NCBI RefSeq assembly: GCF_900187275.1
Contig: NZ_LT906458.1
Location: 840,001 to 872,000, forward strand
From: Pasteurella multocida
GTDB lineage: Bacteria; Pseudomonadota; Gammaproteobacteria; Enterobacterales; Pasteurellaceae
Length of the DNA stretch: 32,000 nucleotides
Direction: 5' to 3'
Within the stretch, counting starts at the first letter, position 1. Each line of letters begins with the position of its first letter. A program made the translations under genes and the position numbers. Shown in pieces: positions 12,094 through 12,867 of this stretch. The notes beneath the pieces were generated by a model. It ran no database searches. It worked only from the letters and a program-made list of their open reading frames with translations, and was not told the DNA's origin.

Positions 12094-12292
12094 TCAAATC
12101 TTTCGAATACACGTTGCCGCTTTAGGTCTAGCTTTCACTAAAGAAAGTTCGGAGTAGTTGCCAATCGTAATTTTTACACGCGTTTTTAGAGATGGTTTTA
12201 ACTAGTTAAAAAACCAATTTTTGCTGTGTAGATAAATAATTAGGTTCAATCCATTTCGTTCTGAAAGATAAAATTTTTACTTTTAGGTCTAA
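12094..12292 (-). pseudogene. Decayed remnant of a P4-type tyrosine integrase N-terminal (arm-binding) domain
   Basis: Minus-strand translation in two frames: LDLKVKILSFRTKWIEPNYLSTQQKLVF*LVKTISKNA, then a frameshift, then KITIGNYSELSLVKARPKAATCIRKI*. The second piece fits the G-x-Y-P/S-x-h-S-L-x-x-A-R motif, and the first fits the L(T)D.K.K and KLW.F segments of P4/CP4-57-type integrases. Same orientation as ssrA and about 210 bp downstream of it. No catalytic domain follows. Confidence 0.5.
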
Positions 12293-12434
12293 TATTATTG
12301 ATTTGAGCAACTATGAATGGTCTAATTATTTTACTGTTTAGAAGTCAATTAATAAGCTTATGTGGGGATTTTTATATTCATTTTTGAAGACTCTACATCA
12401 GCATCTGACCCTGATGATACTTTTATGACACAAT

Positions 12435-12471
12435 AAAAAAGCCAAAACCCTCTTAAATCAAGGATTTTGAC
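12435..12471 (-). terminator. Rho-independent terminator of ssrA
   Basis: Minus strand GTCAAAATCC-ttgatttaaga-GGGTTTTGGC (10 bp including two G-U pairs) followed by TTTTTT, 30 nt after the tmRNA 3' end. Confidence 0.65.
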
Positions 12472-12500
12472 CTCTTATTATACTTTTTGATATTTTTGAT

Positions 12501-12867
12501 TGGTGGAGCTGGCGGGAGTTGAACCCGCGTCCGAAATTACTCTACCTTCAGTACTACACGTTTAGTCTCGTCTTTAATTTCATTTACCCACTGCGGACAG
12601 ACACGCGATAGATAAACTAGCTTGATTCAATTTAACGCTTCGATCCTCAAGCGGAGGCGTCCACGCGATCTCGTTTGAATTTGACTCCTCTTGATCCCCG
12701 TCTTACGAGCGGAAGCTGGGGAGAGAAGGCTATGAGCAGGTTATTAAGCTGCTAAAGCGTATTGTTCGTCGTTTGCGACTATTTTTTTGCGGTTTATTTA
12801 CGAGGCCTACCGCACCTCGACGTGCACCTTGGGCTTCACTAATCCCGTCGAATCCAGAATCAGCCCC
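12501..12867 (-). ncRNA. ssrA: tmRNA (SsrA), tag peptide ANDEQYALAA
   Basis: Reverse complement starts GGGGCTGATTCTGGATTCGACGGG and ends GGACGCGGGTTCAACTCCCGCCAGCTCCACCA (tRNA-Ala-like acceptor/T-arm). Tag reading frame GCAAACGACGAACAATACGCTTTAGCAGCTTAATAA runs from 12776 down to 12741. Confidence 0.97.

Follow-up and report, generated by a model that had tools for sequence, protein, structure and literature searches.

A decayed integrase stub, very probably of the CP4-57/P4 type, beside a predicted phage cassette downstream of ssrA in Pasteurella multocida

That integration followed by decay leaves pieces of integrase genes next to tRNA and tmRNA genes has long been known, and elements of this kind usually rebuild the 3' end of the gene that they target. 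CP4-57, which occupies ssrA in Escherichia coli K-12 and carries intA and alpA, is about 22 kb in length and is still able to excise (PMC10107115); its excision leaves a one-base deletion in the 14-nt stretch of ssrA, CGCCAGC-CCACCA, and the same 14-nt ssrA 3' end is tabulated for the ssrA islands and prophages of other gamma-proteobacteria (PMC10107115 Table 1). In P. multocida, the predicted prophages Pmp1-Pmp14 have been reported (PMC10986470; OR544131-OR544139), and their integration sites are not described in that report. Within the literature on P. multocida ssrA/tmRNA and prophages, outside Williams 2003 ('Traffic at the tmRNA gene'), we found no paper on this P. multocida remnant.

We analyzed the ssrA locus of P. 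multocida in a stretch of 32 kb, which is referred to here as the window. The ssrA side of the locus consisted of the following features:

12501 to 12867, minus strand: intact ssrA, the tmRNA gene (ARAGORN; Rfam RF00023, 274.6 bits, full length 1-374).
12501 to 12514, minus strand: att core, the last 14 nt of ssrA, CGCCAGCTCCACCA in RNA sense (strain junctions).
12427 to 12500, minus strand: 74-nt block supplied by the element, the attL arm (alignments).
12339 to 12426, minus strand: spacer from the ssrA terminator to the former integrase start, common to the window, L017, L022 and L024.

The window ssrA encodes the tag peptide ANDEQYALAA, and its att core is unoccupied; in other strains, a prophage of ~42 kb joins there. 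In particular, alignment of the window with the L013 and L036 loci revealed that identity ended exactly after TGGTGGAGCTGGCG, and comparison of these junctions located a displaced copy of TGGTGGAGCTGGCG at the far end of the prophage. In P. multocida, ssrA is an active phage attachment site (a live attB) with a 14-nt core. Across the remnants of the window and of L017 and the integrase-proximal side of the intact L015 prophage, the 74-nt block was 96-100% identical, and a terminator scan placed within it the terminator-like hairpin of ssrA (12476 to 12436), which is followed by a T run. The target gene is hence both intact and regenerated by the element, as evident from the full-length ssrA and the 74 nt common to the attL side. 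The spacer was divergent in the intact L015 locus, where it was 34 nt longer, and it probably represents the old integrase promoter and arm-site region. At a permissive threshold, Rfam revealed nothing credible in the stub region apart from the tmRNA.

No attR (a second ssrA 3' end) was found in the 32-kb window with a 14-mer at up to 2 mismatches or a 23-mer at up to 3, and no displaced target fragment lay in direct orientation at a far end in the window. Three matches to the 14-mer with 3 mismatches were present in the window, all of them distant, where about one is expected by chance. Because attR was not found, the far boundary of the former element cannot be fixed; it falls at 10706 in comparison with L017-type strains, but at 10953 in comparison with L045-type strains.

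Comparison among strains revealed at least five configurations at this site: the window type, the L017 type, the prophage-occupied type, an IetAS island, and a toxin-antitoxin-like pair with an inverted ssrA. In GCA_036349155.1 (L015), an intact 429-aa integrase (PF13356 and PF00589) was encoded 199 nt 3' of ssrA at the end of the ~42-kb prophage, and AP025519.1 showed the same prophage junction. In the prophage-bearing strains, the junction followed the 14-nt core, and the old remnant was kept outside, beyond the far end of the prophage. In L017 and L022, integrase codons 1 to about 110 were joined to the last 13 codons and an HTH_17 (AlpA-like) gene, and this L017-type remnant showed 77-87% DNA identity to the intact integrase/HTH_17 module of the ~42-kb prophage. 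The stub described below was present in most sampled P. multocida strains.

Judging from the homologies, this stub is very probably what is left, as a pseudogene, of the N-terminal arm-binding domain in a tyrosine integrase of the CP4-57/P4 type; it extends on the minus strand from 12338 to about 12050 and is composed of the following parts:

12279 to 12338, minus strand: stub segment A, codons 1-20, NSKIIRPFIVAQINNIRPKS (tblastn against L015 integrase residues 2-20, 58% identity).
12277 to 12278, minus strand: two nt that remain of codon 21 after the loss of 1 nt (frameshift) from an A run (tblastn).
12097 to 12276, minus strand: stub segment B, codons 22-77, KFYLSERNGLNLIIYLH-SKNWFFN*LKPSLKTRVKITIGNYSELSLVKARPKAATCIRKI (PF13356 and homologues; asterisk, stop).
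12046 to 12096, minus strand: putative stub tail, uncertain, proposed from weak collinear similarity.

The stub started 162 nt 3' of ssrA on the same strand. Its segment SKIIRPFIVAQINNIRPKS (12335-12279) paired with residues 2-20 of the intact integrase, and the codon map revealed AAC at the position of the integrase start codon (12338-12336) and an in-frame TGA just upstream (12347-12345). Two tblastn matches in different frames, 2 nt apart, located the frameshift, which follows codon 20; this 1-nt deletion was common to the window and L024 and was absent in L017. Segment B carried an in-frame TAG (12204-12202) at a Tyr position, corresponding to codon 47 inside the arm-binding domain, as well as a one-codon deletion and a terminal TGA (12096-12094). 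With a further in-frame TAG (12045-12043) at the junction with the cassette, the in-frame stops amounted to two to three. The stub is not an uninterrupted ORF with a start codon but a pseudogene fragment, a non-functional member of its family, of which about 77-88 integrase codons survive.

The preliminary description of this DNA had proposed an integrase stub downstream of the tmRNA gene on the same strand, which was borne out by ARAGORN and Rfam, PF13356 and tblastn, with a start at 209 nt that has to be moved to 162 nt. The segment RVKITIGNYSELSLVKARPKAATCIRKI* (12180-12094, minus strand) had been read exactly right, and it paired with GKYPEVSLQQAR of the intact P. multocida integrase and GAYPAVSLSDAR of E. 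coli IntA. The upstream half, LDLKVKILSFRTKW...KLVF*LVKTISKNA, had been taken in the wrong frame, and only the second half of that reconstruction (residues 34-71) fit the profile. Likewise, the KLW-F-like motif noted there was a misreading; the true W-F motif is SKNWFFN*, for which the intact gene has SKSWLFNYY, and it shares its frame with the GNYSELSL segment. The proposed extent of 12292-12094 was too short, and about 77-88 codons survive in place of the estimated 65 or so. One stop and one frameshift had been counted; the true frameshift is the one at 12277-12278, the stops are two to three, and the start is lost as well.

In the putative tail, LLINQDDR may correspond to the LAQNLDPR / LAQGIDPQ motif at about residues 80-88, and the junction of the stub with the next block was near 12045. 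A tblastn-proposed extension to integrase residue 107 (window 11968) was rejected: three gaps were needed, a manual BLOSUM62 tally gave a net gain of only about +10 raw score, and the DNA from 12045 to 11933 was 84% identical to a phage intergenic region.

With stops masked, a blind scan of all six frames of 10620-12500 against Pfam revealed PF13356 (Arm-DNA-bind_3) as the sole notable match (E 8.5e-5, 23 bits, profile positions 14-70), and the match is therefore more than chance. The homology-guided, frameshift-corrected translation scored 28.8 bits (cut-off 27), and the arm-type DNA-binding domain (PF13356 / DUF4102) was thus recognizable, though interrupted by the frameshift and a stop. The intact 429-aa integrase from the same locus of GCA_036349155.1 matched with an E-value of about 5e-16 by tblastn, with 44% identity over segment B. 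Against 2.3 Gb of phage genomes, tblastn gave E 3e-9 and 44.6% identity to the integrase of Pasteurella phage Pmp14, and the N-termini of the Pmp1-4 integrases were matched as well; residues 6-72 of E. coli CP4-57 IntA were matched at E 4e-9 with 34% identity. No intact integrase closer to the stub than about 45% identity was found in the protein, IMG/VR and 2.3-Gb phage searches. In particular, the 60-aa stub translation yielded no candidate in a word-indexed search of 5.8 billion proteins, none of the 43 pattern matches to the stub in IMG/VR was confirmed, and the same scan with the intact integrase returned one distant locus only.

No core-binding domain (PF22022, Phage_int_M) was found in the six frames of 10620-12500 or, by tblastn, in the whole window; this domain is weak in the intact L015 protein itself (residues 107-196, 21 bits). 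Similarly, the catalytic domain PF00589, with its catalytic tyrosine, had no match in the six frames of 10620-12500, and tblastn with the intact integrase on the 32-kb window matched residues 2-108 only, as the preliminary description had held in stating that no catalytic domain remained. It had also regarded the geometry as classic for ssrA integrases, and this agrees with E. coli K-12, where ssrA is followed by intA after 203 nt. From ssrA to the integrase start, the gap measured 162 nt in the window, compared with 199 nt in L015, 203 nt in E. coli K-12 and 166 nt in Vibrio olivae, and the two genes were co-oriented in every one of them; the stub thus has the spacing of 150-250 nt and the strand expected of such an integrase gene 3' of a tRNA or tmRNA gene, and relatives also adjoin tRNA-Ser, tRNA-Cys and tRNA-Val genes. 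The checks proposed at that stage gave positive results throughout: the profile and homology searches (PF13356 at 28.8 bits; tblastn E about 5e-16 and 3e-9; IntA E 4e-9), the search for strains with an element at ssrA (the intact integrase and ~42-kb prophage of GCA_036349155.1, and the same junction in AP025519.1), and that for a duplicated ssrA 3' segment in such strains, where the 14 nt TGGTGGAGCTGGCG flank the prophage. The notion of ordinary ancestral intergenic DNA, which had been named as the opposing case, is contradicted by the integrase, L017-remnant and phage matches.

Between the window and L024, identity was 88.7% in the stub, 97.4% in ORF203, 98.8% in the OMPdecase-family gene and 99.7% in ssrA; the stub, as the fastest-diverging segment of the locus, appears to be under neutral decay. 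The stub was also a mosaic: its proximal part matched the L017 remnant at 93% identity but only up to 12182, and L024 switched affinity near 12290. Because of this mosaic structure, we consider the stub to have been shaped by recombination between related elements and not by simple deletion.

The segment beyond the stub is, as predicted from the homology of its flanks, a phage moron cassette with a promoter/RBS block, two genes (ORF203 and ORF70) and a phage-like 3' flank. This cassette and the far edge of the region contained the following features:

11950 to 12045, minus strand: predicted moron promoter and leader, with a TATAAT box near 11985 and a GAGGA RBS directly before the ORF203 ATG (phage homology).
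11338 to 11949, minus strand: ORF203, 203 aa, with an N-terminal hydrophobic helix, the putative cassette cargo (strain comparison).
11023 to 11235, minus strand: ORF70, 70 aa, hydrophobic, with two hydrophobic stretches seen by eye, the second cassette gene (gene calls).
10953 to 11044, minus strand: phage-like sequence on the 3' side of the cassette, matched in Pasteurella phage Pmp2 at 6339-6431 (84.2% identity, E 1e-15).
10707 to 10952, no strand assigned: AT-rich DNA with no profile match, found in strains of the window and L045 types; L017-type strains have other sequence in its place (blastn).
10677 to 10710, plus strand: hairpin downstream of the OMPdecase-family gene (9942-10619), formed by the 15-nt inverted repeat I11 (93% complementary).

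The promoter block was not integrase-derived; the intergenic DNA preceding Pmp3_0016 matched it at 84.3% identity over 108 nt (E 9e-24), and Pmp14 and Pmp1 matched it at 86-88% over 66 nt. At the other side, the homology of the 3' flank ended at about the start of a phage 'baseplate spike' gene. A phage-homologous promoter and 3' flank with variable cargo between them were hence both present, and the genes downstream of the promoter differ among phages. Pmp3_0016, which stands behind the common promoter block, was considered as a relative of ORF203 and found to be unrelated. Additionally, when 10620-12000 was compared by tblastx with the prophage portions of L013, L015, L036 and Pmp14, as well as with the variable segments of L017, L020 and L045, only the promoter block matched.

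ORF203 was intact in the 26 sampled loci that contain its exact 30-nt start, with a 1-column gap in L019, and showed a pN/pS of 0.31 against L024, a value that rests on few substitutions. Its sole real relative among 1.84 billion representatives was P0002 (51% identity), which is located in a prophage and adjoins a P22-type antirepressor and tail genes. ORF203 had no Pfam match above the cut-off and no PADLOC family, its PHROG match was marginal, and its AlphaFold model (mean pLDDT 55.9) was too poor for a fold search. ORF70 was called as a gene in all window-type strains, with a pN/pS of 0.46 against L024 (again from few substitutions), and had no match in Pfam, PHROG or PADLOC. The GC content of the region was 26-30%, compared with about 40-45% in the flanks, and the hairpin at 10677-10710 marked the conserved chromosomal edge of the variable region, where all strain types rejoin the window at 10706. 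The AT-richness noted in the preliminary description was accordingly real, and the adjacent 'orphan genes' correspond to the moron cassette; its reading of 10.6-12.5 kb as the remainder of a mobile element fits this cassette, and its single deletion does not, as more than one deletion or recombination is needed.

From these observations we infer the following history. A temperate phage or a closely related integrative element would have used its attP to recombine with the final 14 nt of ssrA, rebuilding the 3' end of that gene and adding right behind it its own 74-nt arm, which now contains the terminator of ssrA, followed by its integrase gene in matching orientation. The integrase start codon would then have been lost, and this loss would predate the split of the two remnant types because the lesion is common to both. 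Subsequent deletions and recombination may have removed attR and the remaining element together with the integrase beyond about codon 80-90, and would have left a single moron cassette (promoter, ORF203, ORF70 and 3' flank) fused to the stub. The sequence data directly show the homology, the lesions, the missing integrase domains and attR, the polymorphism among strains and the phage derivation of the cassette flanks; the order of the events and the number of deletions, like any present-day role, are reconstructed rather than observed. The cassette need not be the original cargo of the element that left the stub, because the homologues of its flanks lie in Pmp prophages on the strand opposite to the integrase gene.

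That strand relationship also bears on a different origin, in which a small integrative island or phage satellite left the stub and ORF203 and ORF70 arrived later through phage recombination. The mosaic structure of the stub would suit such an origin, as would the use of CP4-57-type integrases by islands and phages alike and the non-phage cargo at the locus in other strains, e.g., IetA/IetS and the toxin-antitoxin-like pair. However, a complete ~42-kb prophage occupies the same site in other strains, with an integrase/HTH_17 module to which the L017-type remnant shows 77-87% identity; the late genes of that prophage are co-directional with its integrase gene, which would permit the cassette as original cargo, and both cassette flanks and the sole ORF203 homologue were found in phages. 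We regard an island or satellite as a rather unlikely source, though one to be kept in mind.

A second question is whether the remnant has been domesticated. In this case, the 74-nt block would be the working ssrA terminator, the 88-nt attP-like identity (14-nt core and arm) would be a preferred landing pad for related phages, and the predicted membrane-protein cassette of ORF203 and ORF70, an orphan family under a phage promoter and preserved throughout the species, would act in superinfection exclusion or another host-phage interaction. This proposal as a whole appears doubtful to us and is put forward tentatively.

The stub might instead be a functional short gene for a stand-alone arm-binding protein that regulates or blocks the integration of related phages at ssrA. 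It is fixed in most sampled P. multocida strains, and comparable N-terminal stubs were found in three other species, Microbulbifer (tRNA-Ser), Paraferrimonas (tmRNA) and Actinobacillus minor (tRNA-Val). Their recurrence is, however, explained by geometry alone, because the 5' end of the integrase gene adjoins an indispensable t(m)RNA gene and its terminator. With the start codon missing behind an in-frame stop, a frameshift after codon 20, a stop at codon 47 inside the domain and the fastest divergence of the locus (88.7%), a functional gene is very improbable. Finally, chance similarity in AT-rich intergenic DNA, which the first reconstruction seemed to allow (only E 0.011, under the Pfam cut-off, with no match in the word-indexed search of 5.8 billion proteins or in the phage tblastn), has practically no standing, as it was already refuted by the same-locus tblastn (5e-16), the phage search (3e-9 in 2.3 Gb) and the corrected Pfam score (28.8 bits) once the correct frames were used, and PF13356 was the sole six-frame family match, at the position and on the strand expected relative to ssrA.

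The locus is a footprint of an ordinary, well-understood kind, probably the scar of a phage once inserted at ssrA; no concept is changed, because such integrase remnants have long been known. The stub itself does nothing today, and the parts that still matter are probably the ssrA terminator block and, possibly, an expressed cassette. The result explains an AT-rich, seemingly 'orphan' 1.8-kb stretch beside an essential RNA gene in P. multocida and identifies the interval from ssrA to the OMPdecase-family gene as a hotspot with turnover of prophages, defence genes (IetAS) and toxin-antitoxin-like pairs. Its use is mainly in annotation, and the locus is worth checking in the strain typing of Pasteurellaceae and in hunts for mobile elements or defence islands.

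Among the known systems, CP4-57 was similar in several respects. Over its full length, the intact P. multocida integrase shared 33% identity with IntA (E 7e-69), the ssrA 3' end was the target in both (the annotated start of CP4-57 lies 15 nt inside ssrA, compared with the 14-nt core here), the orientation was the same with a spacing of 203 nt versus 162-199 nt in P. multocida, and an AlpA/HTH_17 gene accompanied the integrase gene in E. coli, L015 and the L017 remnant. In contrast, CP4-57 keeps an intact intA, whereas the window has about 80-90 decayed codons; with only these left and without attR, the window remnant cannot excise. The displaced ssrA fragment in the P. multocida prophage strains was also the wild-type CGCCAGCTCCACCA, unlike the stretch left by CP4-57 excision.

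The ~42-kb prophage (GCA_036349155.1 = JAZDXE010000001.1; AP025519.1) shared the attB, the 74-nt arm with the terminator block and the N-terminal sequence pattern of the integrase, with 44% identity to the stub. Unlike the remnant, it is intact and seems complete, carrying tail, helicase and methylase genes, and it contained neither ORF203 nor ORF70 in the parts seen; the distal half of the window stub was too divergent to come from this particular phage. The Pmp1-Pmp14 prophages provided the integrases that best matched the stub in the databases and intergenic blocks 84-88% identical to both flanks of the ORF203/ORF70 cassette, with other genes behind the common promoter block. Islander follows the same principle, a tyrosine integrase at a tDNA 3' end with the gene restored, with tmRNA as its most enriched target; it would miss the window remnant because the integrase gene and the displaced tDNA fragment that it needs are both absent there.

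The decayed N-terminal integrase fragment 3' of ssrA (the stub; minus strand, 12338 to about 12050) is a pseudogene remnant with a stranded moron cassette beside it. The stretch between ssrA and the following operon was AT-rich (26-30% GC vs about 40-45% in the flanks), and the locus was arranged as follows:

16918-13004, minus strand, hrpA, by gene order
12867-12501, minus strand, ssrA/tmRNA (ARAGORN; Rfam 274.6 bits, full length)
11949-11338, minus strand, ORF203, called gene in the AT-rich stretch
11235-11023, minus strand, ORF70, called gene in the AT-rich stretch
9942-10619, plus strand, last gene of the PTS/OMPdecase-family operon
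10677-10710, hairpin closing that operon

The window comes from Pasteurella multocida. Sequence-identical copies of the 203-aa and 225-aa window proteins were present in many complete NCBI genomes; 'hypothetical protein [Pasteurella multocida]' is the name that one source gives to the cluster of the 203-aa protein. Between hrpA and the DUF441 gene, the DUF423 membrane-protein gene (16915-17299, minus strand) was split into 87-aa and 46-aa ORFs, as in CP008918.1; most other strains have it as one 127-aa ORF.

The three minus-strand frames were translated, and six frames of 10620-12500 were scanned against Pfam with stops masked. The scan revealed a sole notable match, to PF13356 (Arm-DNA-bind_3), the domain found at the N-terminus of P4-type integrases, with an E-value of 8.5e-5 and 23 bits over profile positions 14-70. 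The match was confined to one frame, KFYLSERNGLNLIIYLHSKNWFFN*LKPSLKTRVKITIGNYSELSLVKARPKAATCIRKI*, and therefore the second segment translated in the preliminary description was right; its first segment, LDLKVKILSFRTKW...KLVF*, was in the wrong frame, and its reconstruction matched PF13356 through residues 34-71 alone (E 0.011). When the frameshift was repaired by the homologue from locus L015 (P. multocida GCA_036349155.1), the stub translation scored 28.8 bits against the Pfam cut-off of 27, which bore out the integrase N-terminal assignment. The L015 integrase gave two collinear tblastn matches (joint E about 5e-16), residues 2-20 at 12335-12279 and residues 22-108 at 12276-11965, with no further match elsewhere in the 32-kb window. 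A tblastn search that did not depend on L015, run over 2.3 Gb of phage genomes, matched the integrases of the predicted Pasteurella prophages Pmp14 and Pmp1-4 with an E-value of 3e-9 and 44.6% identity (residues 2-73), and residues 6-72 of E. coli CP4-57 IntA aligned to the stub with an E-value of 4e-9. The codon map revealed the following lesions:

three codons upstream of the lost start, TGA
12338-12336, start codon now AAC
12277-12278, 1-nt deletion
deletion of one codon
12204-12202, TAG replacing a conserved Tyr
12096-12094, TGA
12045-12043, TAG

The core-binding and catalytic domains were absent from the six-frame Pfam scan of 10620-12500 and from the tblastn search of the window; with these domains missing, the start codon lost and the frame broken, the stub does not belong among functional integrases. 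No attR, the displaced second ssrA 3' end, was found within the window.

BLAST extended the stub to residue 107 (11968), an extension that we rejected, as this tail takes three gaps and adds only about +10 raw score by our own BLOSUM62 tally. Positions 12040-11933 instead matched the intergenic region upstream of Pmp3_0016, a moron-like gene of prophage Pmp3 (84.3%, E 9e-24, blastn against phage genomes), in an alignment that reaches about 12045, and 12012-11947 shared 86-88% identity with the corresponding region in Pmp14 and Pmp1. On the basis of the weak tail and the phage homology, 12338-12097 (residues 1-77) can be assigned to the integrase with confidence, and the integrase-derived part perhaps continues to about 12050 (LLINQDDR vs LAQNLDPR). 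The segment 12045-11950 is a predicted phage promoter and leader, with a TATAAT box followed by a GAGGA ribosome-binding site directly before the ORF203 ATG.

ORF203 had a single relative, P0002, 51% identical, among 1.84 billion representative proteins. P0002, from 'Pasteurellaceae bacterium USgator11', is encoded by a prophage, where its neighbours are a P22-type antirepressor and tail genes L, K, I and J. On the 3' side of ORF70, the flank 11044-10953 matched the intergenic region before the 'baseplate spike' gene of Pmp2 (84%, E 1e-15), with homology ending about at the start of that gene. Given the phage homology of the flanks and the prophage setting of P0002, ORF203 and ORF70 are, as judged from sequence, a phage moron cassette with phage-type flanks. 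ORF203 was intact in 26 of 26 sampled loci having its exact 30-nt start, and pN/pS against the divergent strain L024 was 0.31 for ORF203 and 0.46 for ORF70, on few substitutions. The cassette proteins had no Pfam match above cut-off and no PADLOC match, the best PHROG match was marginal (E 0.009), and the AlphaFold model (mean pLDDT 55.9) was of too low quality for use. In L019 (CP097622.1, about 15824-16435), ORF203 was not called and the alignment has a single-column gap inside the gene, which is probably frameshifted there. We also observed a conserved promoter/leader block of ~100 nt in several P. multocida prophages, ahead of small, unrelated genes within the tail/antirepressor region; this block may be a portable moron expression signal. 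The phage-like blocks are as follows:

window, 11950-12045
window, 10953-11044
Pmp3 (L049), 2481-2608
Pmp14 (L048), 16884-16949
Pmp2 (L050), 2501-2593

Other assemblies were examined via neighbours of the window proteins. The preliminary description had proposed an ssrA-targeted island, and strains with an intact element at ssrA were indeed found. L015 contained an intact 429-aa integrase gene 199 nt after ssrA (PF13356 76.9 bits, PF00589 35.2 bits, PF22022 weak). Type (c), L013 (AP025519.1) and L036 (the opposite side of the L015 record), carried a prophage with the intact integrase adjoining ssrA; by record coordinates it spans about 42 kb. Its junction lay exactly after TGGTGGAGCTGGCG, the terminal 14 nt of ssrA, so this gene is a live attachment site. 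The anticipated ssrA 3' duplicate was the displaced 14-nt copy at the prophage far end, wild-type in sequence, and past it lay the older remnant, of the window type in L013 and the L017 type in L036. Table 1 of PMC10107115 gives the same 14-nt end for ssrA islands and prophages in further gamma-proteobacteria. The prophage segments (L013 12560-20678; L015 15273-20453; L036 12346-20468; AP025519.1 and JAZDXE010000001.1) contained lambdoid-type tail genes. The CP4-57-type integrase and HTH_17 gene lay beside ssrA, the far end carried genes for a helicase, a methylase and tail J, and the old remnant was kept outside, in tandem. The 74 nt after ssrA (12500-12427), which contain a terminator-like hairpin (12476-12436), were common to both remnant types and the integrase side of the live prophage; this sharing marks the present ssrA terminator, a predicted hairpin, as element-derived.

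The window type (a) was the commonest among sampled contigs. Type (b), L017 and L022, was window-like from ssrA to 12182 (93% identity), with the start codon likewise lost. Its integrase retained codons 1 to ~110 and then the last 13 codons, followed by an HTH_17 (AlpA-like) gene in a module 77-87% identical to L015, and the sequence rejoined the chromosome at window position 10706. By these comparisons, L017/L022 arose independently, by deletion from a related element. Codons ~110-417 were deleted and ORF203 and ORF70 were missing in L017 (15273-16369) and L022 (JBHMLT010000002.1, CP133639.1). Identities between the window and L024 were as follows:

Window vs L024 identity
integrase stub, 88.7%
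ORF203, 97.4%
ORF70, 96.2%
OMPdecase-family gene, 98.8%
ssrA, 99.7%

The stub difference was partly mosaic, as L024 was L017-like to about 12290 and window-like beyond, a switch indicating that related remnants and elements have recombined. Type (d) comprises L020 and L045. In L020 (CP110621.1, 14754-20448) the ssrA block was inverted and had an IetA/IetS defence pair on its 3' side, and no integrase stub was detected. The block, 416 bp including the promoter, is inverted relative to hrpA; PADLOC gave E-values of 1e-88 and 1e-30 for IetA/IetS, and IetS was apparently split into 502-aa and 221-aa ORFs. L045 (CP097606.1, 11497-13433) also had an inverted ssrA without an integrase stub, with a different terminator, a perfect hairpin AAAAAAGCTAGAATA / TATTCTAGCTTTTTT. 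Genes of 97 and 94 aa, one with Pfam dnstrm_HI1420 and together probably a toxin-antitoxin pair, replaced ORF203/ORF70, and window 10707-10953 was also present. An island at the hrpA 3' end (L042 13548-18151; L045 13418-18010) encoded a NERD-domain protein with a PADLOC MkoA-like N-terminus, a bpMoxR AAA ATPase and a VWA protein; it was flanked by a duplicated hrpA end of about 80 nt, whose displaced copy is a small DUF3418 ORF.

A scan with the intact integrase, one genome per species, returned nine loci; its patterns included the N-terminal motif, which biases it towards N-terminal fragments. Full-length relatives sat after tmRNA in two Vibrio species, and others after tRNA-Ser and tRNA-Gly/Cys. 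The N-terminal fragment alone matched in four of the nine, three of them clean stubs (about 51-61 codons) that followed tRNA-Ser in Microbulbifer and tmRNA in Paraferrimonas and, in a Pasteurellaceae bacterium, had no tRNA or tmRNA gene directly upstream. The frameshifted integrase gene of Actinobacillus minor, after tRNA-Val, reads further than these. The fragments are as follows:

L030, 6001-6183
L032, 6001-6153
L033, 6001-6150
L031, 6001-6367

This suggests that N-terminal stubs are a recurrent mode of decay. The integrase 5' end adjoins an indispensable RNA gene and its terminator, so element-removing deletions tend to spare it, and the recurrence despite the scan bias fits this simple geometry.

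A temperate phage integrating at ssrA, or a close relative, would have inserted at the window site, and the integrase start codon would have been lost before the window-type and L017-type lineages split. At least two later deletions or recombinations would then have removed two segments, one running from integrase codon 80-90 up to the moron promoter, the other starting with the gene after ORF70 and extending to attR. In Pmp prophages the cassette and the integrase gene lie on opposite strands, whereas late genes of the L015-type prophage are co-directional with the integrase gene; the cassette may thus have been carried from the outset by an L015-like phage, or it may have been acquired later.

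Integrase remnants of this sort are a well-known phenomenon. This one falls outside the Islander island definition (PMC4383910) because it has neither attR nor an integrase gene, and a literature search, with Williams 2003 outside its scope, turned up no description of it from P. multocida. In E. coli K-12, ssrA and intA share a strand and the start of intA lies 203 nt beyond ssrA; the annotation of CP4-57 begins 15 nt inside ssrA. In a full-length comparison, IntA and the intact P. multocida integrase were 33% identical (E 7e-69). The remnant derives from the CP4-57/P4 integrase systems at ssrA and resembles them in how it works.
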